Source: an uncultured Candidatus Saccharibacteria bacterium
Lineage (GTDB): Bacteria; Patescibacteriota; Minisyncoccia; Phycocordibacterales; UBA9973
Direction: 5' to 3'
NCBI GenBank assembly: GCA_964505155.1
Contig: CAZDGL010000003.1
Span: 5,728 to 69,727, forward strand
Length of the DNA: 64,000 bases
Shown: one piece after another, positions 3,506-23,681 of the stretch
Layout: every line of letters begins with the position of its first letter
How positions within the stretch are numbered: position 1 is the stretch's first letter
Notes under the pieces: generated by a model
The model's database searches: none
Told to the model about the DNA's origin: nothing
What the model saw: only the letters and a program-made list of their open reading frames with translations
Program-made: the position numbers and the translations under genes

Positions 3506-3511
3506 TTAATT

Positions 3512-3544
3512 AAAAAAATCTTCACATGTGTGAAGATTTTTTTA
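3512..3544. terminator. Bidirectional intrinsic terminator between convergent genes
   Basis: A-run, perfect 9-bp inverted repeat atcttcaca/tgtgaagat (3518-3537), then T-run; located between stop codons at 3505 (+) and 3542 (-). Confidence 0.6.
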
Positions 3545-4252
3545 ATTAGGTTTTATTTTTATGATTCGAACTCTTTTTTTATCAATGAGAGGTATAGTGA
3601 CTCTTAGGAAACCGTGAGATAGTAGGGAATCCACTTTGTCTATTTCTATATTATAAGGCAAGTCTATAGTGCGTGAAAAATTTCCAAAAAAGATTTCTTC
3701 AATAAAAGTATTTTCTTTAGAAAAAGCATTTTGTTTTTTTCTTGAACCACCAATAGTTATATTGTCATACGTTACTTTTATTATAATATCTTCAGGGCTG
3801 TTGCCACCAACAAATGCCTCGATAAATAGTGCTCCATCTTTTTCATACATGTCGATAGGGAGCTCTGCTGTGCCCTCTTCTGTTTGAAACTGTGGAAAAC
3901 TATTTTGAACATAATTTGAAGACTCTATTTTTTCAAACCAAAGCTTAAAATAATCTATATTTTGAGGCGAAATAATCTCGATAATTTTTAGTAAATTTTC
4001 ACCGGTTGATACATCAGTAAGGTAGCTTTTACCATCGCTTGAGGGGAGTTTCAGTTGGTTACAATTTGTAACCAACTGCGGATTAGCCTTTTGTAATCTA
4101 CTTTTTAAGACCTTCCAATAATTTCGAGCATCAGAGCTTTCTGAGACTACTGCCACAACGTCAACAACAGAAAAGTACCATTGTTTGCTAGTCTCATCAT
4201 ATTGTCGACGAATTATGTTCTCGTCTATATCTTTGTGCCCGAGCGTATTCAT
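3542..4252 (-). CDS. Fusion protein: N-terminal Bro-N-like domain plus C-terminal Hsp20/alpha-crystallin domain
   Basis: N-terminus IRRQYDETSKQWYFSVVDVVAVVSES fits the Bro-N consensus (basic residue, W-F, DV..L). C-terminus GNFSRTIDLPYNIEIDKVDSLLSHGFLRVTIP matches the Hsp20 ACD signature (F-R-x-x-LP...vd...A...nGvL.i..P). ATG at 4252 preferred; the ORF-track start at 4282 is a TTG. Confidence 0.5.
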   Translation of the reverse strand: MNTLGHKDIDENIIRRQYDETSKQWYFSVVDVVAVVSESSDARNYWKVLKSRLQKANPQLVTNCNQLKLPSSDGKSYLTDVSTGENLLKIIEIISPQNIDYFKLWFEKIESSNYVQNSFPQFQTEEGTAELPIDMYEKDGALFIEAFVGGNSPEDIIIKVTYDNITIGGSRKKQNAFSKENTFIEEIFFGNFSRTIDLPYNIEIDKVDSLLSHGFLRVTIPLIDKKRVRIIKIKPN

Positions 4253-4338
4253 AATATATGTATAAATACTATTGTATAACAAGATTTTTTAGAAGACTAT
4301 TTGTACAGTTATGTTGTATAATTATCTGTATAAAAAAT

Positions 4339-10300: not shown

Positions 10301-13300
10301 CAGGAGCTCTACAAAATACTTCAAGTACTGCTGTAACCTATACAGGTCTTATCACACTCGGAGCAGCAAGTACTATCATTTCTAACTATGGAGATATTAG
10401 TATTACTAATAGCGGAACTATTTCAGGAGCAACATTTGGCCTAACTATTGGGGGAGCGGGCAATGGACTTCTCTTTAGTATTTTGGGTACTACAAGCGGC
10501 ACTCTCACAAAAAACGGTGTAGGAGTTTGGACTCTTTATGGTTCTAGCACTTTTACTGGCACAACTACTATAAGTGCTGGAACTCTCAAGCTTGGTGCTG
10601 CCGGTGGAGCTACAAACACTCCTCTTGGAACTACTGCAGGAGCAACTAGTATTACTAGTGGAGCTGTCCTGGATCTAAATGGTTTTACTCTTGGTACTGC
10701 TGAGCCAGTAACAATTAACGGAACAGGTATTGCAAGTATTGGAGCATTTATAAATAGTTCAAACAATACTATTTCTTATAGTGGAGCTATCACTCTAGGA
10801 GCTGCTTCTCGTGTTGCCAACTATGGTAGTGGGTTAATGACTGTTTCTGGAAACATCTCAGGTAACTTTGCCCTTACAGTTGTAACTGTAGGTAACTTTA
10901 CACAAGCAACAAATAGTGTTTGGTCCGGTTCAGGTTCTCTTGTAAAAGAAGGCTCAGGGACACTTATTTTATCAGGACAAAATAGCACGACTGGTGCAAT
11001 GACTGTTAGTACTGGTAAACTCCAGCTCGGTGCTTCCGGTGGAGCTACAAACACTCCTCTTGGAACAAATGCCGGAGGTGTGACTGTGTCTTCTGGAGCT
11101 GTTCTTGATCTAAGTACATTTTCTTTAGGTGGTGCATCAACATATGAGACACTAAACTTAAGTGGTACCGGTATAAACAATAACGGCGCTTTAACTTTTT
11201 CTGCTTCTACCAACAACAACTTTGGTGCTATGACAGTAGCAGCCAATACCCGTATAATAAACTCTGGTAGTGGCACTGTTACTTTCGGGGGGACAATAAC
11301 AGCTGCCAATGGAATAACTTTGGCTATTGGTGGTACTGGCCCAACGTCTATAACTGGAGTTTTTGGCGCGACAGCAACAACAGCTACTTTGACCAAGTGG
11401 GATGCTGGAACTCTGACTATTAGTGCTGCAAGTATTACTACTGGTTTGGTCCGTATCAACGGAGGAACACTGAGATATGGTGTTGCTGACGCACTCTCTA
11501 CTCCAGCTGTCACAGTAGCTGGCGGTACACTAAACTTGAACGGATTTAGTGAGACAAACATCGGTGCAGTAACTCTTATTGATGGGTCTATAGTAAACAC
11601 CGGTGCCGCCGCAACTCTGACTTCTACTGCGACATATACCCTTGAAAACGGAACTGTCAGTGCTGTTCTCGGTGGTGCCGTTGTAGCTGCTATTGTTAAA
11701 AATACTGCAGGAAGAGTTATCCTCTCAGGAGACAATACCTTCAATGGTACTTCTGCTACTATTGCTATAAATGCTGGATATTTAAATCTGCGTCACAACA
11801 ATGCTTTAGGAGCGGCTGCTAGTGCAAACACAACGACTATTTTAGGAGGGGCAACTCTTGAGCTCGAAAATAGTATCACTATACCAAGTGTCAAAGCTAT
11901 CACTGCAAATGGTACTGGTATGGAAAGAAATGGTGCAATAAGAAATGTTAGCGGAACAAACTCAATCGGTGCAAACATAACCCTAGGTACTACCAATGTC
12001 CGGATAAATTCAGATAGCGGAACTCTTACAATACCTACTGTTTCTGGGAATACTTTCAACTCAATCTTTGGCGGTGCAGGTAATACTACAGTCTCTGGAG
12101 CTATAACTACCACAAGCGGAACTCTTACAAAGGATGGTGCAGGTACACTTACTCTCTCTGGAAATAATACTTATACCGGTACTACAACTTTGATAAATGG
12201 TACTATTGTAGCCAACACTACAAATTCATTGGGAAATGAAAGCTCCACAAATACATTTATTTTTAGAGGCGGTACTTTGCAAGCAACAGGTACTATAACT
12301 TCTGCTGCAACTCGTGCTTTCACTCTAGCTTCAAATGCAACTATAGATACCAATGGCAACAGTGTTAGTATTGCCGGTACTGTAGGATCTATCGGCGGAC
12401 TTACAAAAACTGGTGCTGGTACCTTAACTATCACAGGTGTTACTACAATAGGAGGCAACCTTGCTATATCTTCTGGTACCTTTGTTGCACCAACGACTCT
12501 AACCCTGGGCGGAGACCTAACCAATAGCGGAACATTTACTCATAGTAATGGTACCGTTACAATAGCACCTACTAACTCTACACTAACCACAAATATTTTA
12601 GGTACTTCAGATACTGCGTTTTATAATCTAACCAACAATACTGCTGGCTCAACTATCCAGTTCAAAGCCGGCAACACTTATACTTTTGCCAATACACTAA
12701 TAATAAACGGTAGTGAAGGAAACCCTGTCTCAATAAACTCAGATAGCGCAGGTGTTCAGTGGTTGATGACTCTATCAGGTAGTGCTTCTCTTGCACACCT
12801 AAAAGTTAAAGATTCAGGTTGTAGTGGAGGCAACACCGTCTCAGCTAGTGGAAATGTTTATGACTATGGAAACAATGGTATATGTTGGTCATTTATATCT
12901 CCTGGATTTAAGCGAGGGGGAGATTCTATAGAGTCTTCTGCTGCTCCAAGTGGCCAAGTAGGTGGCGGAGGTAGTGGTGGTAGCGGTGGTGGCGGAGTTA
13001 GTTATGCAGTAGCCACTGCTGTAGTTTCTTCAAACGTTGTACAAAGTGTCACTATAGATTCTGGGGGTAGTGGTTATACCTTTGCGCCTACAGTACTGTT
13101 TTGTGGTGGTGGTGGCTCTGGTGCTTTAGGTACTGCAGTTTTGACAGGTGATGCTGTTTCAAGTGTGACAGTAGATAACGGTGGCTCTGGATACTCTAGT
13201 GTTCCTACAGTAGTGTTCAACAGTAACTGTCCTACTTCTGGTGGTAGCGGTGGCGGAGGTGGTGGGGGAGATATAGGATTTTTGTATCAAAGAAGAAGAT

Positions 13301-13380
13301 TCTTTGCTTTGTATAATCCTATAAATATAACTATTTTCAACTTCCTTTCTCAGGCATTTGTTCTCCAACCTAAGATTTAA
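4339..13380 (+). CDS. Giant (~3,010 aa) secreted adhesin-like protein built from autotransporter-associated beta-strand (PATR-type) repeats
   Basis: Signal peptide MNVAIKKILKPLAIIFAATFVFCFF..SYA. N-terminal motif WTGATSGSWSVGSNWSGGVAPVTGDDLVFPG and many repeats of the form G.GTLTLSG.NTYTGTTTISAGTL.LGA.GG.TNTPLGTT are characteristic of PATR/TIGR02601-type repeats. The ORF-track start at 4258 precedes the signal peptide, so ATG at 4339 is chosen. The C-terminus has poly-Gly runs. Confidence 0.8.
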   Translation: MNVAIKKILKPLAIIFAATFVFCFFSSEYSYAATRTWTGATSGSWSVGSNWSGGVAPVTGDDLVFPGGASNLSNTNDLTENTIINSITISGSGYTLSGNPIILGPGLAGLTDSASSGGNTVALDIRLDATRDIFVTNSGETLTISGRIAGVGGINKEGTGKLVLSGANTFGGILKINVGIVNAQNNTALGTIAAGTEVVGNAALELQGNIDISYEALALRGYGVSSTGALRNISGTNTYRGLITLSSAGGTEIASDSGTLTITGGMSGAFPLVIDGSGDVTYSTTPIATGSGTVTKNGSGTLTYNFPNTYSGLTTINAGTLLYGVDNAILTGAITVTGGTLDIATYSDMVGSVVVGTLDLASGTITGSTGVLSSAAWTVYNGTISAIIAGYAGTLTKSTTGTVVLTRANQFTGNTTISAGILEIQNSTSLGFIDGITTVSAGATLQINGSGLSIPEYITFSGTGHLYTGAIRNMGGDNTLTGLLTLGAAARIKSDASTTLTIDSKGLSATTLGLTIGGAGNTTFTSTAPIYGTTATLTKQDSGVLTMQAFNNFTGATNLNRGEIVLSSTGAMPNSTITVGSGGTLTLDNSSTTLLNRISDSAALTMNGGSFNFIGNATGTALENAGALTIASGHNTVTVTPGAGGPTTMNFASLSRTAGATVLFRGTNLGSNPAPNISTIMFTSAPAVLGGGGGAGTTTASIIKGAFGDSSLSGTGSDMVTYNLGNTNGLRLLNGAGFSGEYAFTLATNANVKLVADTVASTSSINSLILDGFSITNPGSAQTITLSSGSLAGNILMNSATSIAGANTTLGITTNHLDILTTASATISAVIGTAVAGSVAISGTGSATVSAANLYTGTTFINNATLFAGATNALSSGGVTVVGGTYDLGNFNDTVGAVILQNGTITSGSGTLSGTSYSLREGTVSAILGGGAATVTRIATSAAADSVVTMTRDNTYTGTTTITSGILKLGAAGGGTNTPLGTTGGGTLIASGGALDLNGYTLGTAEAITSLAGTGFGASGSSNMGAIMNSSASPASYSGALTLTAAARINADAGALTISGNASGNFALTFGGFSDITYSGVRSGTSTIVKDGVNTLTLSSGSSSYTGATTISAGTVKVGAASVGGTNSPLGTTGGATTVALGSRLDLNGFNLGIAEPLTLNGVGYGLGDFASGALVNSSGSTVTYSGLITLGSASTIKADSGTVNLTAAGTISGATFGLTLGGAGTGTLSSIIGTTTGTVTKIDTGTWTISGVSTYTGATTVSRGTLRLGGGAGGPTNSVLGTTGGATSVLSGAVLDLNGITLGIAESLTINGRGIDDGGALIGGAVTWPGTVAQATDSRITSSSGTLTITGAVSGAFALYVGGAGNTTFSTATGTAGLSLTKQGAGTLTLTGTNTHTGATRVESGTLAYAASTTLAATALTVLGGTFNSGANADTIGAVTLIGGTITNSAALTGTAYTFEGGNISGILAGAIAVTKNTNNTVTLSGVNTISSTITINAGTLTFSGSGSATSVTGVTVNLGGTLTLDNSTTAVADRLNGTGGTNAIVLTMNGGNFNFIGNGAAASSETLGQLALASGHNIVTVTPGAGGSTTLTFATNPGFNRTAGATVLFRGTNFGSNSGANVSTLVFSTTPTLTGAGGASGSATVSIIKGAFGDSSLSGTGSDMVTYQGGTGLRLLNGAGFANEYSGDFQTANANVKLTADRAAVATNTNSLILNGFSVTNPGGAVTIPMASASLSGNILINSTNNIAGANTTLGITTFELPILATASSTISATIGTATTGSLTLSGSGNVTLTATNAYTGTTFINNAILTSGANNVLSSGGVTVVGGTYNLNGNSDTVGSISINAGTIATGAGTLTGNGTFTTVANANFASIITGNLGLGANATFTINDGLMDNDAVISAVISGGFTFAKAGNGILELSGSNSYTGTTTISGGILRLGASGGATNTPLGTTAGGTTVSGASSALDLNGYSLGTSEALTLSGALATGALQNTSSTAVTYTGLITLGAASTIISNYGDISITNSGTISGATFGLTIGGAGNGLLFSILGTTSGTLTKNGVGVWTLYGSSTFTGTTTISAGTLKLGAAGGATNTPLGTTAGATSITSGAVLDLNGFTLGTAEPVTINGTGIASIGAFINSSNNTISYSGAITLGAASRVANYGSGLMTVSGNISGNFALTVVTVGNFTQATNSVWSGSGSLVKEGSGTLILSGQNSTTGAMTVSTGKLQLGASGGATNTPLGTNAGGVTVSSGAVLDLSTFSLGGASTYETLNLSGTGINNNGALTFSASTNNNFGAMTVAANTRIINSGSGTVTFGGTITAANGITLAIGGTGPTSITGVFGATATTATLTKWDAGTLTISAASITTGLVRINGGTLRYGVADALSTPAVTVAGGTLNLNGFSETNIGAVTLIDGSIVNTGAAATLTSTATYTLENGTVSAVLGGAVVAAIVKNTAGRVILSGDNTFNGTSATIAINAGYLNLRHNNALGAAASANTTTILGGATLELENSITIPSVKAITANGTGMERNGAIRNVSGTNSIGANITLGTTNVRINSDSGTLTIPTVSGNTFNSIFGGAGNTTVSGAITTTSGTLTKDGAGTLTLSGNNTYTGTTTLINGTIVANTTNSLGNESSTNTFIFRGGTLQATGTITSAATRAFTLASNATIDTNGNSVSIAGTVGSIGGLTKTGAGTLTITGVTTIGGNLAISSGTFVAPTTLTLGGDLTNSGTFTHSNGTVTIAPTNSTLTTNILGTSDTAFYNLTNNTAGSTIQFKAGNTYTFANTLIINGSEGNPVSINSDSAGVQWLMTLSGSASLAHLKVKDSGCSGGNTVSASGNVYDYGNNGICWSFISPGFKRGGDSIESSAAPSGQVGGGGSGGSGGGGVSYAVATAVVSSNVVQSVTIDSGGSGYTFAPTVLFCGGGGSGALGTAVLTGDAVSSVTVDNGGSGYSSVPTVVFNSNCPTSGGSGGGGGGGDIGFLYQRRRFFALYNPINITIFNFLSQAFVLQPKI
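6050..7400 (+). repeat. Intragenic large repeat, copy 1 (within the giant adhesin gene)
   Basis: Protein segment NGGSFNFIGNATGTALENAGALTIASGHNTVTVTPGAGG...RTAGATVLFRGTN...IIKGAFGDSSLSGTGSDMVTY... and the following ~450 aa recur about 2.85 kb downstream. DNA identity is high locally, e.g. ggtgcatttggtgacagctctctctctggaacaggttctgatatggt versus ggtgcttttggggatagctctctttctggaacaggttctgatatggt. Boundaries are approximate. Confidence 0.6.
8900..10300 (+). repeat. Intragenic large repeat, copy 2
   Basis: Second copy: NGGNFNFIGNGAAASSETLGQLALASGHNIVTVTPGAGG...RTAGATVLFRGTN...IIKGAFGDSSLSGTGSDMVTY.... The similarity continues through GILRLGASGGATNTPLGTTAGG and beyond. Boundaries are approximate. Confidence 0.6.
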
Positions 13381-13409
13381 TTGCTCAAAAAAAATATTTG
13401 ACGTATAAT
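13381..13409 (+). promoter_or_regulatory. Sigma70-like promoter (TTGCTC-17-TATAAT) for the 13436 gene and surface-protein cluster
   Basis: ttgctc at 13381-13386, 17-nt spacer, perfect tataat at 13404-13409. Confidence 0.45.
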
Positions 13410-13435
13410 CTTAGAGCTTAACATTTATATTGTTT

Positions 13436-13846
13436 ATGACTAAGAAAAGTTTTAAAAATATTTCTCTAGCGGTAATTATCCTGATTGTTCTATCTTTAGG
13501 TGGATTTTTTTACTATAAACTGCAAAAAATGAAAAAAAATAGTGCTGACATGGTCAAAAAAGAATCTCAGGAACTTTTAAGTAAGGTTTCAAGACTCTAC
13601 TTAGTATCTACAAAAGAAGAACCCACTATCGCTACTGTTTCTGACCCTGATAAACTAAAAGATCAAGCATTTTTCTCTGAATCAAAAAAAGGTGACAAGG
13701 TCCTTATCTTTACCCAAGCAGGAAAAGCTGTACTTTATCGTCCAGATATAGACAAAATAATAGCCATTGCTCCTTTTGATACTAGTAACAACTCAGGGAC
13801 AAACCCTACACCAGATAATAAAGCAACTACCAACTCTGGCAACTAG
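13436..13846 (+). CDS. Small single-pass membrane protein with Ser/Thr/Asn-rich C-terminal tail
   Basis: Hydrophobic N-terminal helix (ISLAVIILIVLSLGGFFYY). ATG at 13436; the ORF-track start at 13430 is a TTG. Confidence 0.45.
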   Translation: MTKKSFKNISLAVIILIVLSLGGFFYYKLQKMKKNSADMVKKESQELLSKVSRLYLVSTKEEPTIATVSDPDKLKDQAFFSESKKGDKVLIFTQAGKAVLYRPDIDKIIAIAPFDTSNNSGTNPTPDNKATTNSGN

Positions 13847-13873
13847 GTTTGATTATCGTGTTATTATATATCT

Positions 13874-14881
13874 ATGTTTAGAGTGCCTTATTTAGTTAAA
13901 AAAATATTTGGCGTTATTTTCCTTTTAGTTTTTTTTATAACTTCGTTTGCTTATTCTGCGGATATGACCAGTTCTAGTTTTATTATTCGTGATCCATTGG
14001 TTGGGACAGGTGGATCTTACGGCTCTTCTGCTAGTTTCCAAGCTTTTGGTTCAGGAGATATGACTACTATCGGTAGGTCTACCTCCGCTAGTTTTGAAGG
14101 TAGATATGGATTTTTATGGTTTCCTTATGTAACTCAGGGTACGTTTACAGCTACTCCAAATGGCTCTCAGGCAGATCTTGCTTGGGGCGCTTCCACAGCT
14201 GGACTTGGTTGGAGTGTCTCTGGTTATAAAACAGGGATTAAACCCTCTGGTGGATCGTACTCTTATACTACACATGGTCTTATAACTAGTTATTCTTATA
14301 CAGGGCTTACTCCGGGGGGATACTGTTTTGTACTACAAACTTTAGATGCTTTCAGCAATGTCATAGCAACTTCAAGCGAAGAGTGTATAACCATACAAAC
14401 AGTTCTAACTTTCTCTGTTTCGTCTAGCTCTATAGGATTTGGGACTTTGTCTGCTTCCGGTCCAAGATATGCAACCACAAGTGGCGGTAGTGGGTCAAAC
14501 TCAGTCGCTCATACAATGTCAGCTTCAAGCAATGCAGGTAGTGGATATACAATAACTTATTTTGGACCAACATTAACTAGTGGTTCAAATACTATAACTC
14601 CTGCAACTATTACAAATGATGCTGATGGTACTCCAGGGTCAAGTCAATTTGCCCTTTCTCTTTCTTCTTCGGGAAGTGCTAGTATCACTTCGGCTTACAA
14701 CCAATCAAGTGGATCAGGAAATTGGAAGTTCGTAGCTAGTACAGTGGAACCGATAGCAAGTACGAGCGGAGTGACCTCTTCGGAGACTTTTAGCAACAGA
14801 TATTTGTCAAATATTTCCTCACTAACTCCAGCTGGTAGCTATGCCACAGATATCACCTACGTAATAAGTGCCAATTTCTAG
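13874..14881 (+). CDS. Secreted Ser/Thr/Gly-rich surface protein, paralog A, with conserved C-terminal module (WxL-like?)
   Basis: Sec signal peptide. C-terminal ~150 aa (TITPATITNDADGTPGSSQFALSLS...NWKFVASTV...AGSYATDITYVISANF) are clearly homologous to the C-terminus of the next gene. Confidence 0.6.
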   Translation: MFRVPYLVKKIFGVIFLLVFFITSFAYSADMTSSSFIIRDPLVGTGGSYGSSASFQAFGSGDMTTIGRSTSASFEGRYGFLWFPYVTQGTFTATPNGSQADLAWGASTAGLGWSVSGYKTGIKPSGGSYSYTTHGLITSYSYTGLTPGGYCFVLQTLDAFSNVIATSSEECITIQTVLTFSVSSSSIGFGTLSASGPRYATTSGGSGSNSVAHTMSASSNAGSGYTITYFGPTLTSGSNTITPATITNDADGTPGSSQFALSLSSSGSASITSAYNQSSGSGNWKFVASTVEPIASTSGVTSSETFSNRYLSNISSLTPAGSYATDITYVISANF

Positions 14882-14996
14882 AAAACTGTGGATAACTATA
14901 CGTTTTTGATTGATTAGATCTTTCAATATTGTTATACTATAAGTAAGTACTAGGTAAGTGCTTAAATTATTATAAATAAAATTAAATTTTTAAATT

Positions 14997-16085
14997 ATGT
15001 TAAAGAAAATTATTAGTTCTATCTCTATCTTGGCTTTTGTATTTGGTACATTGGCATACAACCCTTTTACAGCAGTCGCAGCTCAGTTTACTGGAGTCAA
15101 AGACACTCTTTCTACTGTTACAGTTAATACAACAGCAACTCACGTCATAACAGCAACTCTTGTTGGCGGAGACACTTTTGCTGCTGCTGAAACCCTAACC
15201 TACGATTTCGTAGATGCTGATTTTACCCTTAACGCTATTGGTTCTTGGCAGACAGCAGACTTTTCTTTCAACGATGGTACAGCTCGAACAATCACCGCAG
15301 TCTCATCTTCAAGTGGTGTTGATCCTACATGTACAGCAGGTGTTAACAACGTAGCTGTTACTATAAACACATCAACAAACAACTTTAAAGTTACTGCTTG
15401 TAGTACTTATACAGCTTCTTCAGCTAACGCTACAGTTACCTTTACTATCAATGGAACAACAGCTTCTGGTACAGGAACAATGACCAACAAATCTTCAGAT
15501 GTAGACTCTTCTACATTCTCTATAACAGAATCAAACGGAGATACTGCAAGTGGCGCAGTTGTTGCTGAAACTAACGGTACAGTTAACATCACTGCTACTG
15601 TTTCTCCTACACTTACCTTTGCAAATGATGACGCTTCTGTTGGATTTGGAACACTTACTTCTGGTGCAGCAAGATGGGCTAACGGTGCTGCGACTGGATC
15701 TGCTTCTACAACAACAGCTCATACTATGACGATAGGAACAAATGCTCCTACTGGATACACACTTACCTATAACGGTCCAACTCTAACTTCTGGAGGAAAT
15801 ACAATAGCACCTGCAACTATCTCTGGTGATGCTGATGGTACCCCTGGATCAAGCCAATTTGCTCTTGGTGTGACTGTGACAGGTACAGGAACAGCTTCTG
15901 CTGGTTATCAAACTGCTTCAGACAACTATAACTTTGTAGCTTCGACTGTTTCTCAGGTAGCAGCTGCAACAGCTCCTGTTTCTTCTGATACAGTGGCAGT
16001 AAGATACTTAGCAAACGTATCAGCTTCTCAAGCAGCTGGTAGTTATGCTACAAACCTAGACTGGGTTGTTACTGGTAACTTCTAA
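14997..16085 (+). CDS. Secreted Ser/Thr/Gly-rich surface protein, paralog B, same C-terminal module
   Basis: Signal peptide. C-terminus TIAPATISGDADGTPGSSQFALGVT...NYNFVASTV...AGSYATNLDWVVTGNF is parallel to paralog A. The terminal Y-x-T-x-L-x-W-V-V pattern resembles the second WxL motif of Gram-positive WxL domains. Confidence 0.6.
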   Translation: MLKKIISSISILAFVFGTLAYNPFTAVAAQFTGVKDTLSTVTVNTTATHVITATLVGGDTFAAAETLTYDFVDADFTLNAIGSWQTADFSFNDGTARTITAVSSSSGVDPTCTAGVNNVAVTINTSTNNFKVTACSTYTASSANATVTFTINGTTASGTGTMTNKSSDVDSSTFSITESNGDTASGAVVAETNGTVNITATVSPTLTFANDDASVGFGTLTSGAARWANGAATGSASTTTAHTMTIGTNAPTGYTLTYNGPTLTSGGNTIAPATISGDADGTPGSSQFALGVTVTGTGTASAGYQTASDNYNFVASTVSQVAAATAPVSSDTVAVRYLANVSASQAAGSYATNLDWVVTGNF

Positions 16086-16115
16086 AAAGATTTATTAACT
16101 TAAAAAAGAGAGTTT

Positions 16116-17129
16116 ATGGTAAGAAAAATACTTTTAACGATTGGAGTATCGCTTTTAGCAACATGCTTTTTGGCTACTAAAAGTGCTTACGCCCTTACCA
16201 TAACTCCTATACGTTATGAGATATCAGGAAATCCTGGGGAAACTGTTACTCAAAAAATGGGTCTCGTAAACGAGACCAACAAAACTCAAACATTCTTTGC
16301 TTCGTTTGAAAACTTTGAAGCTCAAGGTGATACAGGAAGTCCTAGTTTTGTGGAAGCAAAAGATGGCCTAGGTACATGGATGACAACAGAGCAGGCCTCT
16401 ATCACACTTGCCCCTGGTGCTCAAAAAGAAATGTCTTTTAGCATTAAGATACCAAAAGATGCAGAACCAGGAGGGTATTTTGCAGCTATTTTTTGGGGAA
16501 CATCTCCAGGAGGTAATGCTCCAGGACAAGTTTCTATAGGAACCAAAACTGGCCTTCTCATACTTTTGACCGTTAACGGAGATATTAGAGAACAAGCTGG
16601 ACTTGTAGATTTTGAGCTTCATAACAACAAACATTTTTATAAAATGTTGCCTGTTGGGTTTCAATATAGATTTTCAAACCAAGGAAATGATAGAGTAAAG
16701 CCAAAAGGCGATATTGTTATCCGTAGTATATTTGGATGGGTTGCAAAAAGAGTCAATGCAAATCCTTATGATGGTAACGTTCTTCCTGGTACTACTAGAA
16801 AATTCTCACCAGAGTGGAGCAAAAGAGACTCTGTAGAAGTCAGAGATCAAGAAATTTCTCGAAACGAGTCATATTCTTTCAAGAAAGCTGTGGGTGATCA
16901 ATGGCACAATTTTGCTTTTGGGATTTTTAGAGCAAAGGTAGTAGCTAGTTTTGGTGTTGCAAACCAGGTAGCAAAAAGTCAGGCTGTTTATTTTGTAGTT
17001 TTCCCTTGGGAGTTGATTTTGGTAATTATAGTTTTAGCTATTCCAGTCTATTTTATACTTAGAGCTTTGCTCAAAAGGTATAACAGAGCTGTTATTAGAA
17101 GAGCACAGAAGCAGATGGGTATGCGCTAA
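16116..17129 (+). CDS. CscA-like cell-surface protein (DUF916-like N-domain, DUF3324-like domain, C-terminal TM anchor with basic tail)
   Basis: Signal peptide, beta-rich region (LTITPIRYEISGNPGETVTQKMGLVNETNKTQTF...APGAQKEMSFSIKIPKDAEPGGYFAAIFWG). C-terminal TM (ILVIIVLAIPVYFIL) is followed by RALLKRYNRAVIRRAQKQ. Size (337 aa) and architecture match CscA-type proteins of WxL loci. Family assignment is inferred, not searched. Confidence 0.5.
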   Translation: MVRKILLTIGVSLLATCFLATKSAYALTITPIRYEISGNPGETVTQKMGLVNETNKTQTFFASFENFEAQGDTGSPSFVEAKDGLGTWMTTEQASITLAPGAQKEMSFSIKIPKDAEPGGYFAAIFWGTSPGGNAPGQVSIGTKTGLLILLTVNGDIREQAGLVDFELHNNKHFYKMLPVGFQYRFSNQGNDRVKPKGDIVIRSIFGWVAKRVNANPYDGNVLPGTTRKFSPEWSKRDSVEVRDQEISRNESYSFKKAVGDQWHNFAFGIFRAKVVASFGVANQVAKSQAVYFVVFPWELILVIIVLAIPVYFILRALLKRYNRAVIRRAQKQMGMR

Positions 17130-18025
17130 TGATTTATGATTTTGTTATGCCTTTCAAAACTAAGCACATTATCGTATTAAGTTCAGTATTTGTTTTACTA
17201 ACTTCTTTTTTTCTATATAAAAATTTAAATGCTCAAACCTTAACAGAATCAGAAACAGTTTCTATAGGAGCGATAGTGGGTAGTATTCCTAGTATAGATA
17301 CAGGTCCAGGAGGTGGAACGTATCAAAGCGGCGTACGTTTTTCAGGACTTGCTTATCCAAAGGCCTTGGTCACAGTTCAAAAAAGAGATACTACTTTTGT
17401 GACAGTTGTAGCAGATGAAACAGGAGCTTTTTCTATTCTTGTTCCAGAAACTTCTTGGCAGTTGTTTACCTTATTTGCTGTTGATACAAAAGGTCGCAAA
17501 TCAACACTCTTAAATTTCCCAACTATTTTGTACAGTGGTTATATAACAGATATATCAGGTATAAGATTTGCCCCTACTTTGGTCACTGATAAAATATCTG
17601 TAAAAAGAGGTGACTTTATAACGTTTTCTGGGTCTGCTCTACCAAATAAAGAAGTAGAAGTTTCTTTTGAGGGGGAAGAATCAAAAACTTTTTATCTTAC
17701 TTCTGATGAGCTTGGGTTTTTTAGCGCTACAGTTCCTCTTGATTTAAAAAATGGAGAATACGTAGTTAGAGCTTTTTATTCTAAAGACTCAAGAACCAGT
17801 AAGGCCCTTAGAATAACTATAGGAAACTCTACAATACTACGAAACGAAGCTACAAATAACATACCAGGGGATTGTAACTTTGATCAAAATATCACACTTG
17901 TTGATTTTTCAGTTTTGGCCTTTTGGTACGGCAAGCAAAACCCGCCCAAGTGTGTTGACGCAAACTCTGATAGAATAGTAAATCTAATAGACTTCAGTAT
18001 AGTTGCTTTTTATTGGAATGGTTAA
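17129..18025 (+). CDS. Secreted protein with two Ig-like/beta-sandwich regions and a C-terminal type I dockerin module
   Basis: C-terminus holds two canonical dockerin Ca-binding repeats: GDCNFDQNITLVDFSVLAFWYG and DANSDRIVNLIDFSIVAFYWNG (D1-N3-D5-V8-N9-D12 followed by a hydrophobic helix). Confidence 0.65.
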   Translation: MIYDFVMPFKTKHIIVLSSVFVLLTSFFLYKNLNAQTLTESETVSIGAIVGSIPSIDTGPGGGTYQSGVRFSGLAYPKALVTVQKRDTTFVTVVADETGAFSILVPETSWQLFTLFAVDTKGRKSTLLNFPTILYSGYITDISGIRFAPTLVTDKISVKRGDFITFSGSALPNKEVEVSFEGEESKTFYLTSDELGFFSATVPLDLKNGEYVVRAFYSKDSRTSKALRITIGNSTILRNEATNNIPGDCNFDQNITLVDFSVLAFWYGKQNPPKCVDANSDRIVNLIDFSIVAFYWNG

Positions 18026-18028
18026 AAT

Positions 18029-18934
18029 ATGAATCAGAAAAAATACAAAAAAATAAATTTAATTGTTATTCTAGTTTTAGGTATTTTTCTCTTACCTTTT
18101 AAAGTCGCCACAGCTTCTTTACTCGAGTTTTCTGCTTTGGAAAAAGTCTCTGTCAATGAAAAATTTTATTTAGATATTTTGGTTGATCCAGAATCTCAAA
18201 GTATAAACTCAGTCGGGGCATCTGTTCTTTTTGATCCAGAACTATTCACATATTTAGGATTTAGTTCGAAGCAAAGCAGTATCCCTGTTTGGGTAGAAGA
18301 GCCAAAACAAGAAAAACTAGGAACTATAAAATTTTCAGGAGTTATCCCAGGAGGTATAGAAAGAATCTATGATCCACTAAACACAGGACAAAGATCAATC
18401 CCTATCGTGAGATTGTTTTTTGCAGGTAAACAAGAAGGTTATGGAACCTTTACTTTTTCTGATGCTGTAGTTTTGAAAAATGACGGGCTAGGAACTACGA
18501 CTAAACTATCAGTAAAGAGCAAGTCTGTTTCAGTTACAAAAGGAAATTCTCTAAATGATGCTCAAAAAGATTTGGTTAACCCAGAGCCTTTTTCTATAAA
18601 GATAATAGAGCGATCTATCTTTGGGAGGTCTCCAAGGCTTGCCGTTTTTTCTTCAAATGATGAGGGGGGCGGTATAGAGCGTTATGAAGTCTCTATTTCA
18701 GGGGGTCCTTTTAAAATCTCTTCCAGCCCCGTTCCTTTGCCGTATAAATTGTTCTCATATGAGTTTATTGTTAGAGCTTATGATTATTCGGGTAATTTTA
18801 GAGAGCAAAAGATTTTGGTCTCCGGAGAGAAGATTTATGGCGCTGGTGGCATCATAGTTATTTTTATACTGATTCTTGGCTTTATTCGTTATAAATTTTA
18901 TAATAAGAAGAGGATAAACAATGAAAAGATTTAG
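18029..18934 (+). CDS. Membrane-anchored cohesin-like domain protein 1
   Basis: Signal peptide. The N-domain (FYLDILVDPESQSINSVGASVLFDPELFTYLGF...GTFTFSDAVVLKNDGLGT) fits the cohesin beta-sandwich pattern (F.v.V......i......yDP..l..........F.F......dG). C-terminal TM helix GGIIVIFILILGFI. Confidence 0.5.
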   Translation: MNQKKYKKINLIVILVLGIFLLPFKVATASLLEFSALEKVSVNEKFYLDILVDPESQSINSVGASVLFDPELFTYLGFSSKQSSIPVWVEEPKQEKLGTIKFSGVIPGGIERIYDPLNTGQRSIPIVRLFFAGKQEGYGTFTFSDAVVLKNDGLGTTTKLSVKSKSVSVTKGNSLNDAQKDLVNPEPFSIKIIERSIFGRSPRLAVFSSNDEGGGIERYEVSISGGPFKISSSPVPLPYKLFSYEFIVRAYDYSGNFREQKILVSGEKIYGAGGIIVIFILILGFIRYKFYNKKRINNEKI

Positions 18935-20003
18935 TTTATTTTTATTTCTGAGCTTAGCTTTGGCTTCATGCAAAGCCTCTTTTGCTAGTGAAAATTTTAT
19001 AATAAGTGTACCCAATAGAGATATAAGAGTTGGTGAAAGTTTTCCTGTCACTGTTTTTGTTAGTAGTAACTCTCAAGCGATGAATGCTGTTTCTGGTACT
19101 TTGCAAGCCTCAGGAGGGCTAAGTGTTGGCGGTGTCTCTAAACAAAGCAGTATTGTTGATTTTTGGACTATAGAACCACAAATCTTTGGTAGTCAGATTA
19201 AGTTTGAAGGAGTTGTCTTAAACCCAGGTTTTCAAGGTCAAAGCGGAAAACTCTTTACTATCAACTTTTTAGCCCGCAAAGAAGGTAATGCCTTACTTTC
19301 TTTTTCAGACGGAGCTATCCTCGCAAATGATGGTTTAGGGAGCAATATTATAGACTCTCTTTCATCAAAGAGTGTAAAGATAGTCGCAGGTGCTCCTGTT
19401 ATTGTTGATCAGATACCTAGAGCTCCTATTGCCGTGGATAAACCTTTAGTCCCAACAAAACTATCAGCTCTTCCTGTTATCACAGAATACTCTCAGGTTG
19501 TTGATTCTTCTGGCCGGGCATTTATCAAAGGTAGAGGTGAGCCCAATGCTATAACAAAACTATCTTTCAAAGATACTTCAGCTAAAAGTTTGGGTGAACA
19601 GTTTATCATTGCATTACAAACCAAAAAACAAAAACCAACAGAAGCTCTTGTAAAAAACGATAATCAAGGTGTATTTCAGTACATATCATCCAACAACCTA
19701 GTTGCTGGAGCTTATAACGTTACACCATTTTTGGTTGAAGAAGATAATCAAACCCAGAAACCTGGTTTCGGAGTTCAGCTTTTAGTCAATAACAGTAAAA
19801 TGGTACGTTGGTTGGTTGTGCTTATAAATGTCCTAGCTCTGCTTATTCCTATTGTTTGTTTGGGTGTTATTGTTTACTTTATCCCTTGGTACTCAAGACT
19901 TAGAATGAAAATCCTTAATCATAAGATAAAACTTGAAGATGAGAAACTAACTCTTACAGAAAAACAACTCAAAAAAGAAGAATCTTCAACCGAGCAAACA
20001 TAG
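18921..20003 (+). CDS. Membrane-anchored cohesin-like domain protein 2 (paralog of 18029 N-domain)
   Basis: Signal peptide. The N-domain (FPVTVFVSSNSQAMNAVSGTLQASGGLSVGG...ALLSFSDGAILANDGLGS) is paralogous to the previous gene. C-terminal TM (WLVVLINVLALLIPIVCLGVIVYFI) plus short cytoplasmic coiled coil. Overlaps the previous gene by 14 nt. Confidence 0.5.
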   Translation: MKRFSLFLFLSLALASCKASFASENFIISVPNRDIRVGESFPVTVFVSSNSQAMNAVSGTLQASGGLSVGGVSKQSSIVDFWTIEPQIFGSQIKFEGVVLNPGFQGQSGKLFTINFLARKEGNALLSFSDGAILANDGLGSNIIDSLSSKSVKIVAGAPVIVDQIPRAPIAVDKPLVPTKLSALPVITEYSQVVDSSGRAFIKGRGEPNAITKLSFKDTSAKSLGEQFIIALQTKKQKPTEALVKNDNQGVFQYISSNNLVAGAYNVTPFLVEEDNQTQKPGFGVQLLVNNSKMVRWLVVLINVLALLIPIVCLGVIVYFIPWYSRLRMKILNHKIKLEDEKLTLTEKQLKKEESSTEQT

Positions 20004-20039
20004 TAGAGTTTTGTTGTGATACAATATTTATATAAATAT

Positions 20040-21119
20040 ATGCTTCGATCTTTTTTGCTAACCCTTTTTATCTTTCTCTCTTTCACTTCTTTGGTAAGTG
20101 CCAATGTTCTTACTCCTGATCAGCGCTCTTGGCTGACCAGTCACAAAAACACTTTACTCGTTAGGCCAGAGCGCAATTATCCTCCTTTTTCTTTTTTATC
20201 TTCTTCTACTAGCGCTAGACCCAAAGGCCTTGCTGTTGACTACTTAGACCTTGTCGCAAAAAAGGTTGGAGCAGTTGCTACTTTCTTAGAACCAAGATCT
20301 CGAAGTGCTATTTTATCTGATATAAAATCAGGCAAAGAAGGTATTGTACTTGCTATATCAGAATCCGCTGATAGGTCTGACTATATGTACTTTTCTGAAC
20401 CCTTTATATCCTTACCAGCGGTTATTGTGACAAGAAAGGATTTTAAACATTCAAAAGATCTAACTTTGGCTGATTTTGAAGCTAAACAAGTAGCTGTAAC
20501 AGGTGGCTATGAAGCTTTTGATTATATAAAAGATAATTATCCAAAAATAATTTTAGAGTCTGTCTCTGACGACGAAGTCGCTCTCCAAAAGCTTCTCCTC
20601 GGAGAGGTAGATGCTGCCGTTATGGATCTAGCATCACTGTCATACTATACCAGCAAGGATGTGCTCTCTTATGTATCTGTTGGTGGGCAAACTGGTTTTG
20701 AGTACAACCTCTCTTTTGCAGTCCCAAAAACAATGCCAGAAATGGTTACTATTTTAAATGCGGGACTTAAAGAAATAACCCCAACAGAAAAAATCATAAT
20801 CTCTGATCGATGGATAACTTTTGAAGAAAATAGAGAAGATAAAACTCAAAAAGTTTTTGGTATTTTACAAAGTCCTTTTTGGATTTCTGTCAGTATCTTG
20901 GCTATAGTTATCATCATCGTTTTATTGACACTGATAATTGTTCACTCTAGAAGGCATCATAGATATCACCTTGCTAGCCTCAAGAGAACTCAAGAGCTTG
21001 CTGAGCTCAAAAATGAACTTTCGCGTTTGGAAGGTGCTAGTGATACCTTGGAACAAAATTTAGAAGAAATAGACTCGCTCAAAAGAGCTGTAGAGGAGAA
21101 AATAGAGCATATAAACTAA
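20040..21119 (+). CDS. Tethered Venus-flytrap (SBP_bac_3-like solute-binding) domain protein with C-terminal TM and coiled coil, paralog 1
   Basis: Signal peptide. Motifs LLVRPERNYPPFSF and GEVDAAVMDLASLSYYT are typical of family-3 periplasmic binding domains; followed by a TM helix and Leu-heptad tail. The ORF-track start at 20016 is GTG; ATG at 20040 begins the signal peptide. Confidence 0.6.
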   Translation: MLRSFLLTLFIFLSFTSLVSANVLTPDQRSWLTSHKNTLLVRPERNYPPFSFLSSSTSARPKGLAVDYLDLVAKKVGAVATFLEPRSRSAILSDIKSGKEGIVLAISESADRSDYMYFSEPFISLPAVIVTRKDFKHSKDLTLADFEAKQVAVTGGYEAFDYIKDNYPKIILESVSDDEVALQKLLLGEVDAAVMDLASLSYYTSKDVLSYVSVGGQTGFEYNLSFAVPKTMPEMVTILNAGLKEITPTEKIIISDRWITFEENREDKTQKVFGILQSPFWISVSILAIVIIIVLLTLIIVHSRRHHRYHLASLKRTQELAELKNELSRLEGASDTLEQNLEEIDSLKRAVEEKIEHIN

Positions 21120-21165
21120 GTGTTGATTTTATAGCTCTAAACACGCTACAATACCTTATATCAAC

Positions 21166-22266
21166 ATGTCTAAACTCAGCAATTTCCTTCTAGCCACATT
21201 TTTAGCTATTTTATGTTTTGGGTTCTATTTTGACCAAGTAGCTTTTGCTGAAAATTCTATTTTAACTCAAGAGCAAAGTTCTTGGCTTAGTAAAAGAAAT
21301 AATACTATTTTGATCCGACCAGAGCGTAACTATCCTCCTTTTGTTTTTTCTGTACAAAACGGGCTTTCAAATGTCATTCAAGGTTTGGGCGTTGATTATT
21401 TGGAATTAATCACAAAAAAGATAGGAGCCAAGGTTCAATACTTCGAACCAACACAGCTTTCAAATATTTTGTCTTCTTTTAAAGAAGGTAAAGAAGGTGT
21501 AGCAATTGCCCTTACTAAAACAGCTGAAAGAGAAGAGTATTTGTACTTTACAAAGTCTTTTATAAGCATTCCCGCAGTTATCGTAGCCAGAAAAGATAGC
21601 AACTTATCGCAGGGCGATACTTCTTTAGCTGATTTGTCAGGCAAGGTTGTTGCTGTTGGCAAGGCTCATGCTGTTGAATCATATATCAAAAGTTCTTATC
21701 CTAATATAGTTTTAGATTCTTTACCAGATGACGAGGTTTCTCTCCAAAAGCTCCTCCTTGGAGAGGTAGATGCTGCCGTCATGGATTTGGCATCACTGTC
21801 ATACTATACCAATAATCAGGCGCTTTCATATGTGTCTGTAGTTGGTCAAGCTAATTTCAACTACAATCTATCTTTTGCTATTTCAAAGAAAAATAAAGAA
21901 CTTCAAAATATTTTTGATACTGCTCTTGGTACAGTAACTCCACAAGAAGCATCAGCACTGAGAGATAAATGGATTACACTAAAAGATGTCTCAATCGTAA
22001 AGTCAGAACCTACTAGTTTATTTAAAAATCCGATATTTGTAGTAGTCGTATCTATACTAATCATATTTTTTATTTTATCTACCTCTGTTTTCTTATCTTT
22101 TTTAAAGAAAATACAAACTCTTTTGGCTCAAAATTTAAAATTTAATAAAAATAAAAATGAGATAGAAAGTAAATTAGAAAGCTTAGAAAATGCAAAAGCT
22201 ATGATTAAAAAAGAACTTGAACATATTGACGAGCTAGAAAATAATCTTAAAGATACTTTGGACTAA
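21166..22266 (+). CDS. Tethered Venus-flytrap (SBP_bac_3-like) domain protein, paralog 2
   Basis: Same architecture and shared motifs (ILIRPERNYPPFVF; GEVDAAVMDLASLSYYT) as the preceding gene; tandem paralogs. Confidence 0.6.
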   Translation: MSKLSNFLLATFLAILCFGFYFDQVAFAENSILTQEQSSWLSKRNNTILIRPERNYPPFVFSVQNGLSNVIQGLGVDYLELITKKIGAKVQYFEPTQLSNILSSFKEGKEGVAIALTKTAEREEYLYFTKSFISIPAVIVARKDSNLSQGDTSLADLSGKVVAVGKAHAVESYIKSSYPNIVLDSLPDDEVSLQKLLLGEVDAAVMDLASLSYYTNNQALSYVSVVGQANFNYNLSFAISKKNKELQNIFDTALGTVTPQEASALRDKWITLKDVSIVKSEPTSLFKNPIFVVVVSILIIFFILSTSVFLSFLKKIQTLLAQNLKFNKNKNEIESKLESLENAKAMIKKELEHIDELENNLKDTLD

Positions 22267-22302
22267 GTATTTTTTACTGACATTTTTATAGTAAATGAAC
22301 TT

Positions 22303-22378
22303 TGAGCCACTTGTCAGACTTGAAAGACCTTCGCTTTACCCACTTACGCTTCAGTGGACAGGCGTCAGCGTTGCTCTG
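22303..22378 (-). pseudogene. Degenerate tRNA-Thr copy (anticodon-arm region disrupted, 5' half missing)
   Basis: The reverse complement aligns to tRNA-Thr positions ~22-76 (GAGCAACGCT...AGCGAAGGTC..TTCAAGTCTGACAAGTGGCTCA). It carries a ~28-nt stem-loop insertion in place of the anticodon loop and a 5-nt deletion in the T-stem. There is no complementary 5' acceptor strand. Confidence 0.45.
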
Positions 22379-22395
22379 TTTAGATTAATTTTTTG

Positions 22396-22468
22396 AGCCG
22401 CTTGTCAGACTTGAACTGACGACCTTCGCTTTACAAAAGCGTTGCTCTACCAACTGAGCTAAAGCGGC
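22396..22468 (-). tRNA. tRNA-Thr (anticodon UGU)
   Basis: Reverse complement GCCGCTTTAGCTCAGTTGGTAGAGCAACGCTTTTGTAAAGCGAAGGTCGTCAGTTCAAGTCTGACAAGCGGCT folds as a canonical cloverleaf: 7-bp acceptor, GCTC/GAGC D-stem, anticodon loop TTTGTAA, GTCAG/CTGAC T-stem with TTCAAGT loop. Confidence 0.85.
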
Positions 22469-22473
22469 GATTG

Positions 22474-22494
22474 TGGCTCCAAAATTTGGAGCCA
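22474..22494. other. Perfect palindrome tggctccaaa-a-tttggagcca (hairpin) downstream of gene 22508-22897 (-) and upstream of tRNA-Thr
   Basis: The two 10-nt arms are exact reverse complements. There is no flanking T-run, so terminator function is uncertain. Confidence 0.3.
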
Positions 22495-22507
22495 ACTGAC
22501 TTACATT

Positions 22508-22897
22508 TTACACGTTTTTTGTTTTTCGTCTAGCTTTTTTCTTTCCACCATCTGGGGCATTTATCTTGTCTTTATTTTCGGAGATACTCATTAGAAAATA
22601 AGATGATGGTCCATGCTCAAGCCCTGCTAGTTCGTCTTTGGGCTCAAAGACTGTTTTGGCTTTGGGGAATACATAGAAAAATGCTTTGGCTATGATTTTG
22701 GTCATAAAACCTCTCAATCTTTTTGTGATCCTAAGGATTAAAAACCAAGCTTTTCTAAAACTTCTAGCATACTTGTTGGATATTTGCTCTAGCTCTTTTT
22801 CTGATTCTTTTTTGTGATGTTCTTTGAAAATAACAAACATGACAAGAAGCCAAAGAGCAAGTAGGGAAATGATAAGAGCAAATATTTTTCCAATCAT
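22508..22897 (-). CDS. Small membrane protein, hypothetical
   Basis: ATG start; N-terminal TM helix (IFALIISLLALWLLVMFVIF) and basic C-terminus. Confidence 0.45.
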   Translation of the reverse strand: MIGKIFALIISLLALWLLVMFVIFKEHHKKESEKELEQISNKYARSFRKAWFLILRITKRLRGFMTKIIAKAFFYVFPKAKTVFEPKDELAGLEHGPSSYFLMSISENKDKINAPDGGKKKARRKTKNV

Positions 22898-22901
22898 ATC
22901 T

Positions 22902-23681
22902 TTAGCCTAGAGTGTAGAGCTTAAAAGAAACTACTTCTGCGCCTGCGTTTTGAGCCATCTTTCCAACTGTTATTTCTGGGTTTTTGAAAAATGGTTGATC
23001 AAGGAGTGTTTGTTCTTTGAAGTATCCAGATATCTTTCCTTCCATCATCTTAGTTTTGATATCTTCTGGTTTACCACTTTCGTCTACTTCTTTTTTCAAA
23101 ACTTCTATCACAGCTTCTCTGTCAGATTCTTTTATATCTGTAGCTTGTAGATATGTAGGCTTCATAGCACTAGCGTGCATAGCGATATCTTTGGCTACTT
23201 CAGCGTTACCACCTTTAAGTACAACCACAGAAGCGCTTTTGCCGTTGAAGTGAATGTAAGATCCAATAGTTTCTCCAGAATACTCATCTATTGTTCCGAG
23301 CTGAATATTTTCTCCAGTTTTTAGAACCGCATCGTTAATAAAGGCAGATGATGCTTCCTTAGCCTTCTCTGTGCCTTCACTCCAAGCGCTAGAGAGGATA
23401 GCTTCTCCACAGTCTATGAAGCCTTGGTTTTGAGCCACAAAGTCTGTTTCGCAGTTTAGGGTTACCACTACCGCCTTACCGCCTTCGTTTTTGATAAATA
23501 CTCGTCCATCTACAGCACTTCGGTCTGACTTTTTCTCAGCCATTTCGCTACCTTTTTTGCGTAGGATTATCAAAGCCTTTTCCATATCTCCACCAGCTTC
23601 TTCTAGTGCCTTGCGACATTGCATAACTGATACACTTGTTTTGTCTCGGAGTTCTTTTACTTGTTCTGTTGTGATTGTCAT
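22902..23681 (-). CDS. tsf: Elongation factor Ts
   Basis: N-terminus MTITTEQVKELRDKTSVSVMQCRKALEEAGGDMEKA is the conserved EF-Ts UBA-like start; located downstream of rpsB in the classic rpsB-tsf arrangement. Confidence 0.85.
   Translation of the reverse strand: MTITTEQVKELRDKTSVSVMQCRKALEEAGGDMEKALIILRKKGSEMAEKKSDRSAVDGRVFIKNEGGKAVVVTLNCETDFVAQNQGFIDCGEAILSSAWSEGTEKAKEASSAFINDAVLKTGENIQLGTIDEYSGETIGSYIHFNGKSASVVVLKGGNAEVAKDIAMHASAMKPTYLQATDIKESDREAVIEVLKKEVDESGKPEDIKTKMMEGKISGYFKEQTLLDQPFFKNPEITVGKMAQNAGAEVVSFKLYTLG

Follow-up and report, generated by a model that had tools for sequence, protein, structure and literature searches.

What does a dockerin protein, encoded directly ahead of two membrane-anchored cohesin proteins in a bacterium of the candidate phyla radiation (CPR), fasten to the cell? 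The question is raised by three consecutive plus-strand genes in a 64-kb stretch of contig CAZDGL010000003.1 (hereafter the window, to which all coordinates refer). The first, g4 (17129..18025), encodes a secreted protein of 298 amino acids with a signal peptide, an N-terminal strand, a glycine-rich linker, two immunoglobulin (Ig)-like domains and a dockerin; g5 (18029..18934, 301 amino acids) and g6 (18921..20003, 360 amino acids) encode membrane-anchored cohesin proteins 1 and 2. The genes are tightly packed: the last base of the upstream gene g3 is the first base of g4, 3 nucleotides separate g4 from g5, and g5 and g6 overlap by 14 nucleotides. The initial annotation of the window took g4–g6 for a compact, self-contained surface docking system with g4 as free cargo. 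Docking to membrane-anchored scaffolds is the most likely predicted function of these genes, but they turned out to be part of a Pam-type pilus cluster of about nine genes, and g4, with a two-Ig stalk and a conserved N-terminal strand, resembles a basal pilus subunit rather than a cargo. We consider it probable that g4–g6 form the cell-attachment end of a Pam-type donor-strand-exchange pilus in Paceibacteria (CPR), with a predicted dockerin-cohesin joint.

The dockerin occupies residues 242-298 of g4 (17852..18022) and comprises two calcium-binding loops with helices. Both loop repeats recognized in the initial annotation lie at the C-terminus of this gene, i.e., DCNFDQNITLVD (residues 248-259) and DANSDRIVNLID (residues 277-288), and in a six-frame translation of the whole 64 kb the pattern D.[ND].[DN]..[IVLM]...D was found only at these two sites. 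No further dockerin or cohesin of the g4, g5 or g6 types is encoded within the window. Against the Pfam model Dockerin_1 (PF00404, gathering score 22.9 bits), full-length g4 scored 18.8 bits, under the gathering score, and the isolated 57-residue C-terminus scored 24.7 bits, over it; all 22 g4 relatives tested matched the model (best E 6.7e-8). The g4 family profile, compared with solved dockerins, gave 2y3n_B as the top match (E 1.7e-5), followed in the Protein Data Bank (PDB) by DocCel5 of Acetivibrio cellulolyticus and dockerins of Clostridium cellulolyticum. In the AlphaFold2 model of g4, with a predicted local distance difference test score (pLDDT) of 82, a helix forms after each calcium loop (257-265 and 286-296), giving the two segments of about 22 residues, loop plus helix, that characterize a type I dockerin. 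This is also the best conserved part of g4, with a mean column identity of 80%.

Two further features of this domain are notable. A cysteine pair is placed with C249 at position 2 of the first loop and C275 two residues ahead of the second loop; among 165 distinct sequences, 141 have both cysteines, 24 have neither and none has a single one. Because C249 and C275 never occur singly, their covariation points to a disulfide clasp of the dockerin. The two halves of the domain are, in addition, almost symmetric, with LV/LI at positions 10-11 and AF/AF at positions 17-18, so that binding in either orientation, or of two cohesins together, is conceivable. That the g4 dockerin holds two cohesins at once is speculation.

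The two proteins encoded behind g4 share one plan, in which a signal peptide is followed by an N-domain of ~140 residues and by a second beta domain, and a C-terminal helix spans the membrane. In g5, the cohesin-like domain spans residues ~30-172, the Ig-like domain ~183-270 and the membrane helix ~271-288, followed by a short cytoplasmic tail. In g6, the cohesin (23-158) is joined through a low-confidence linker to the Ig-like domain (186-290), and the membrane helix (~297-321) is followed by a long conserved cytoplasmic helix at the C-terminus. The signal peptides, paralogous N-domains and membrane anchors that the initial annotation had ascribed to both genes were thus all borne out, and comparison of the family profiles established the paralogy of the N-domains (hhalign 99.7%, E 2e-25, 29% identity). 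A lipoprotein assignment for g6 was rejected, as the LASC motif (residues 14-17) is not conserved across the family.

Evidence for the cohesin identity comes from structure and from relatives. The g6 model (pLDDT 81) has nine strands in its N-domain, starting directly after the signal peptide, and its best Foldseek match is 2w1n, a cohesin-plus-FnIII double module; the N-domain is therefore the nine-stranded jelly-roll, nearest to solved cohesins, that had been expected of it. The Pfam Cohesin model was matched by 5 of 35 g6 relatives (best E 5.3e-7), by 2 of 25 g5 relatives and by 7 of 22 isolated N-domains, and some relatives carry the NCBI name ‘cohesin domain-containing protein’. Single-sequence searches with g5 and g6, as well as with g2 and g3, found no meaningful match among PDB sequences. 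The features read from the sequence are thereby confirmed; the cohesin call relies chiefly on the fold, with g5 assigned through its homology to g6. In established complexes, the dockerin-binding sheet of cohesins is the 8-3-6-5 sheet. With the sheets assigned from canonical cohesin topology rather than from model coordinates, conserved residues occupied 14 of 44 positions on strands 3, 5, 6 and 8 and 3 of 41 positions on the other sheet (Fisher p 0.006), a distribution that is supportive of the predicted dockerin binding, but no more than supportive.

The locus does not represent a cellulosome, since there is no multi-cohesin scaffoldin and there are no dockerin-bearing enzymes; the only dockerin of the window sits on the Ig-stalk protein. 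The non-cellulosomal use proposed in the initial annotation holds, with one cohesin per protein and no glycoside hydrolase among the genes scanned.

The kind of assembly that would be docked is indicated by the genes upstream, which encode pilins. The Pam pilus was described in the CPR bacterium Candidatus Mycosynbacter amalyticus, with pilins, membrane-anchored chaperones and a membrane-anchored terminator as its parts (Troman et al., bioRxiv 2026, 10.64898/2026.03.03.709456). Its pilins were modeled in NCBIfam as CPR_Pam_pilin_C (NF058581, cut-off 55 bits) and as the PamT equivalog (NF058579, cut-off 240 bits). Both g1 (13874..14881, plus strand; 58.8 bits) and g2 (14997..16085, plus strand; 60 bits) exceed the curated CPR_Pam_pilin_C cut-off, a point in common with the Mycosynbacter system, and among 32 pilin relatives 20 match this model (best E 1.2e-44) and 14 match PamT. 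The PamT match of g1 (43.5 bits) covers only profile positions 7-77, the N-terminal part, and falls short of the equivalog cut-off, a point of difference from the Mycosynbacter pilus; compared with PamT, g1 is a longer, multi-domain protein, consisting of a PamT-like N-terminal head, a FnIII-like domain and a Pam pilin C domain, and is the candidate tip subunit. The second Pam-type pilin, g2, retrieved no solved Pam pilin from the PDB sequences, and an NCBIfam scan of g3–g6 gave no Pam-specific match. The pilins make this locus one of the Pam-pilus kind, and it differs in base anchoring and in lineage.

The third upstream gene, g3 (16116..17129, plus strand), encodes a membrane-anchored two-domain protein that is both WxLIP- and PamC/PamD-like. 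It has a C-terminal membrane helix, a weak Pfam WxLIP_PGBD match (E 3.5e-4), which recurs in 18 of 30 relatives, and weak Fn3-like matches; its best PDB profile match, EfmWxLIP1, is not significant. PamC and PamD are described as membrane-anchored PapD/FimC-like chaperones (Troman et al., 2026), and g3 appears to fit this slot as a candidate pilus chaperone.

To place these genes in context, relatives of g4 were collected by a scan of one genome per species (GTDB species representatives), which returned 548 stretches, and the best 80 loci were examined; most are labelled Paceibacteria, Nomurabacteria or Parcubacteria. By profile hidden Markov models (HMMs), the gene order is almost invariant: head-bearing pilin, second pilin, chaperone, g4, cohesin, cohesin. 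At the 72 loci with enough downstream DNA, the dockerin gene is followed immediately by two cohesin genes in 68 cases, by one in 2 and by three in 2, and at none is a cohesin gene missing. Upstream, the chaperone gene directly precedes g4 at 44 of the 46 non-fusion loci with enough DNA, and at 41 the pilin genes are present too. The whole conserved cluster has about nine genes, of which g4–g6 are the 3′ part; on its 5′ side there is usually a giant repeat adhesin gene and then a small membrane protein gene, and on its 3′ side often a gene for a membrane protein with a solute-binding domain.

A natural variant of this arrangement is provided by seven loci at which a single fused protein combines residues ~10-172 of g1 (signal peptide, head and FnIII-like domain), a glycine linker and residues ~67-298 of g4. 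At all six fusion loci with enough upstream DNA, neither of the two pilin C domains is present, and the chaperone is missing as well. Lost together are the acceptor domain of g1, the whole of g2, the chaperone and the N-terminal strand of g4, while the stalk, the dockerin and the cohesin genes are kept. The parts lost are exactly those needed for strand exchange, and the fusions therefore support the reading of the complete cluster as a strand-exchange pilus; the variants themselves represent a natural minimal version of the system.

The dockerin subtype of g4 was also followed beyond these loci, in a census that drew the best 149 proteins out of 1.84 billion cluster representatives. The g4 stalk is present in 116 of these 149; the other 33 are for the most part short sequences or fragments, and in several of the longer ones there is a pilin N-domain or a head with FnIII. 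The same dockerin subtype thus has other architectures (P0314, P0328, P0338, P0369 and P0414), with the dockerin joined directly to a pilin N-domain or to a head with FnIII; in one protein of the latter type two dockerins stand in tandem, and in another the dockerin is accompanied by the protein's own C-terminal membrane helix. On the basis of this census, the g4 dockerin subtype occurs almost only on Pam-pilus modules, to which it is dedicated, and is not a general cargo tag.

These findings bear on the possibility that g5 and g6 are scaffolds for the stand-alone display of g4 as an independent adhesin, the adjacency to pilus genes being mere co-regulation. The cohesin and dockerin identities fit such a display, the Ig domains of g4 are akin to the adhesin stalks of Bap, SiiE and intimin, and the head-stalk-dockerin protein of the fusion variants works without pilins, so that direct display is possible in principle. 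However, stand-alone display does not account for the almost invariant gene order with pilins and chaperone or for a dockerin subtype that is almost confined to Pam-pilus modules, no ligand-binding head is obvious in g4 itself, and the head fused onto g4 in the variants is that of the pilin g1. We therefore regard independent display as unlikely.

The features of g4 ahead of its dockerin would suit a subunit at the base of a pilus. Its relatives (n=223) match PF00404 together with PF17936 in many cases, and the g4 stalk itself matches Big_6 (34.5 bits) and also Big_13. This stalk (residues 68-232, 17330..17824) consists of two tandem Ig-like beta-sandwich domains, whose strands in the AlphaFold2 model span 68-146 and 155-232, with a mean pLDDT per 10-residue block of mostly 86-97. 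A Foldseek search with the whole g4 model retrieved adhesin stalks, e.g., Bap, SiiE and intimin, with the Bap C region 7dm0 matching the stalk; the Ig domains dominate this search, and it is not informative on the dockerin. N-terminally, there is no obvious ligand-binding head but only a conserved strand and the linker. The strand, residues 38-50 (LTESETVSIGAIV, 17240..17278), lies between the signal peptide and the glycine-rich linker and is the candidate donor strand. Its family consensus is TExVSVSAxVGS, with A48 invariant and V50 conserved in at least 90%. In the monomer model, residues 34-62 are disordered (pLDDT <50), and both Ig domains are confident and complete. The strand and the linker strand of the pilins (VxVTATVxP) have the spacing V-x-V-x-A-x-V in common, a resemblance that is suggestive only.

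Assembly of the pilus would then proceed as follows. The tip pilin g1, with its head, and the shaft pilin g2 would be exported by Sec, and their polymerization would be aided by g3 as the membrane-anchored chaperone candidate. As the last, basal subunit, g4 would contribute its N-terminal strand to the last pilin, whose Ig-like C domain is open, and growth would stop there because g4 has no open acceptor domain to offer. The calcium-bound dockerin at the other end of g4 would plug into the cohesins of g5, of g6 or of both, which their C-terminal helices would hold in the cytoplasmic membrane. In this scheme, donation of the g4 strand to a pilin and binding of the g4 dockerin to the g5 and g6 cohesins are predicted steps, as would be the choice between the two cohesins and the stoichiometry.

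The protein with which this scheme has to be compared is PamR, the proposed terminator and anchor of the Mycosynbacter pilus, which is composed of an N-terminal strand, two beta-sandwich domains and a C-terminal membrane helix and for which RbmA was given as the structural match (Troman et al., 2026). The preprint never mentions cohesin or dockerin and places Pam pilins mainly in Saccharimonadia and Microgenomatia (Troman et al., 2026). No single protein with all features of PamR is encoded at the present locus. Instead, the features are split, with the strand and two Ig domains in g4, which ends in a dockerin, and the membrane helix in g5 and g6, which have no spare N-terminal strand. The anchoring role of the single PamR would accordingly be divided here between a secreted adaptor and membrane sockets. 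The systems are alike in their occurrence in CPR bacteria, in the C-terminal membrane helix of the chaperone candidates, in a similar operon layout and in the lack of an usher. They are unlike in that PamR is one protein with its own membrane helix, whereas g4 has none and the strand-bearing stalk is followed by two cohesin-plus-membrane-helix proteins, and in that the main lineages of the preprint, Saccharimonadia and Microgenomatia, are not those of the present loci, labelled Paceibacteria, Nomurabacteria or Parcubacteria.

The same comparison suggests another explanation, namely that g5 and g6 are orthologues of PamR that terminate or anchor the pilus directly through their beta domains, with the g4 dockerin binding a host surface component, calcium, glycan or the product of a gene located elsewhere. 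The plan of PamR, with two beta-sandwich domains, a C-terminal membrane helix and likeness to RbmA, does equal the overall architecture of g5 and g6, and RbmA (4kkp) is within the Foldseek matches of g6 (E 1.7e-6). Yet cohesins rank clearly above RbmA among these matches, the nine-stranded g6 cohesin starts directly after the signal peptide and leaves no spare strand for donation, and conservation is centered on the canonical dockerin-binding sheet. Moreover, dockerin and cohesin genes always co-occur, and the only PamR-like free N-terminal strand is on g4. We judge direct anchoring by PamR orthologues to be quite improbable.

Several observations weigh against a pilus anchored through a cohesin-dockerin joint. 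Besides the RbmA match, the g5 and g6 proteins of the window show no match to Pfam Cohesin (PF00963) at E up to 1; of the HMM matches anticipated in the initial annotation, that to Dockerin_1 was obtained with the isolated domain, and that to Cohesin was obtained for some relatives but not for g5 and g6 themselves. The N-domain profiles match solved cohesins only marginally (E ~0.01), and the test of residue conservation took its sheets from the canonical topology. The strand resemblance is likewise fragile: an HMM of the g4 strand finds the g2 linker at the right place with only 2.8 bits, which is not significant, and the reverse search with a pilin-linker HMM did not find g4. In some deep-branching relatives, a cysteine-rich domain is inserted behind the N-terminal strand. 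Finally, the retention of two different cohesin proteins has no explanation under the pilus-anchor view. A generic likeness, in which an EF-hand-like calcium motif stabilizes the g4 C-terminus and the cohesin-like domains of g5 and g6 are ordinary Ig-like spacers, with no specific pairing, would suit the sub-threshold Dockerin_1 score of full-length g4, the missing Pfam Cohesin matches of g5 and g6 and the few g4 relatives that touch EF-hand models, but is scarcely credible given the solved-dockerin, Dockerin_1 and fold matches.

For the pilus anchor as a general device, our confidence is evenly balanced: in a large Paceibacteria clade (at least 548 stretches), the cohesin-dockerin joint may be a dedicated membrane anchor of the pilus, in which the terminator donates its strand and its clasped dockerin plugs into two cohesin proteins, possibly both at once.

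Precedents for parts of this arrangement exist in systems of other kinds. The last subunit of several pili, such as PapH of chaperone-usher P pili and the basal sortase pilins, joins the fibre, blocks its extension and fixes it to the envelope. The logic proposed for g4 is the same, and no homology was detected; PapH and the sortase pilins anchor by usher and outer membrane or by a covalent peptidoglycan link, whereas the joint proposed here is non-covalent. Use of cohesin-dockerin modules outside cellulose degradation is shared with Clostridium perfringens (GH84C/GH33; 2w1n, 2vo8) and Archaeoglobus fulgidus (2xdh), where, unlike here, the modules join secreted enzymes or toxins, or their partners are unknown. 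In C. perfringens 2w1n, as in g5 and g6, the cohesin is followed by a second beta-sandwich domain, which in 2w1n is FnIII. To our knowledge, no non-cellulosomal cohesin-dockerin module has been reported from a pilus operon, or with a membrane helix attached in the manner of g5 and g6. A functional parallel to the proposed sockets is offered by the cell-anchoring scaffoldins, i.e., ScaE of R. flavefaciens and OlpA, OlpC and SdbA of C. thermocellum, in which an envelope-fixed single cohesin takes the dockerin of a structural protein (PMC12270676). A larger assembly is tethered to the cell via a single cohesin there, as it would be here. The differences are that the anchor of g5 and g6 is a C-terminal membrane helix in place of sortase or SLH domains, that the tethered partner would be a pilus subunit and not an enzyme-bearing scaffoldin, with no glycoside hydrolases, and that there is one dedicated dockerin protein and no repertoire.

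If the joint operates as proposed, attachment of a pilus to its cell by cohesin and dockerin would be known here for the first time. CPR bacteria need contact with host cells, their surface machinery is almost unknown, and the Pam pilus was described only in 2026. The arrangement would explain how a pilus is anchored without usher or sortase in cells with a membrane plus wall, and, next to the one protein that is proposed to anchor the Pam pilus of Saccharimonadia, it would represent a modular alternative. It would also extend the reach of cohesin-dockerin pairs from enzyme scaffolding to filament anchoring. As a pair of small domains, the dockerin and the cohesin are easily testable.

The candidate chaperone has a further resemblance. 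We noted that g3 can be likened to the WxL-interacting protein (DUF916/DUF3324 plus membrane helix) of the WxL clusters of Firmicutes, which shares with g3 a pair of Ig-like domains and the membrane helix at the C-terminus. For WxLIP, insertion of a strand into the partner protein has been predicted, and by their description WxL clusters have no cohesin or dockerin genes (PMC10599100). A WxL domain was not detectable in g1 or g2 by a Pfam scan. A common ancestry or a common mechanism may connect the CPR Pam operons with the WxL clusters.

Around the pilus genes, the window encodes further surface proteins. A protein of 3040 amino acids with 13 PATR repeats (4258-13380) and a protein of 138 amino acids with an N-terminal membrane helix (13430-13846) precede g1, and in most related loci this PATR pair, or a tail-fibre-like giant replacing the PATR protein, lies ahead of the pilin genes. 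A tail-fibre-like protein was also noted close to pam operons (Troman et al., 2026). The giant adhesin may be carried or served by the pilus. On the other side of g6, two paralogous genes (20016-21119 and 21166-22266) encode proteins in which a solute-binding domain (SBP_bac_3) is combined with a membrane helix and, at the C-terminus, a coiled coil; neither contains a kinase domain. Most of the more closely related loci have a gene of this type directly 3′ of the second cohesin gene. Its product might act as a sensor or pair with the long cytoplasmic helix of g6.

Further upstream, the gene at 93-2552 encodes a protein of 819 amino acids with a Gly/Thr/Ala-rich N-terminal half and no Pfam match; some loci have relatives of this protein, up to 2614 amino acids long, encoded upstream of the pilus cluster. 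The two giant surface-protein genes are separated by two minus-strand genes, which span 2558-4282; their products are a beta-lactamase-family protein of class A that has an N-terminal membrane helix (2558-3505) and an Hsp20 protein extended N-terminally by 140 residues (3542-4282).

The G+C content is ~36-37% around the g4–g6 part of the window. A scan of 13000-23000 for promoters and terminators stayed at or close to the chance level, with 27 promoter-like sites where 25.9 were expected, and operon limits were not defined by it. Minus-strand open reading frames within the region (e.g., 18755-19051) were discarded, lying as they do inside strongly conserved plus-strand genes. Many metagenome-assembled genomes among the related loci (L006, L010, L014 and others) are titled ‘uncultured Candidatus Saccharibacteria’, and their g4 proteins share 45-66% identity with g4 proteins from genomes that bear the title Paceibacteria or Nomurabacteria; the former titles look like unreliable default labels. 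At 36457-38801, a phytoene/squalene synthase gene adjoins a gene for a phytoene-desaturase-like amine oxidase, a pair of isoprenoid or carotenoid type that is unexpected in a reduced CPR genome.

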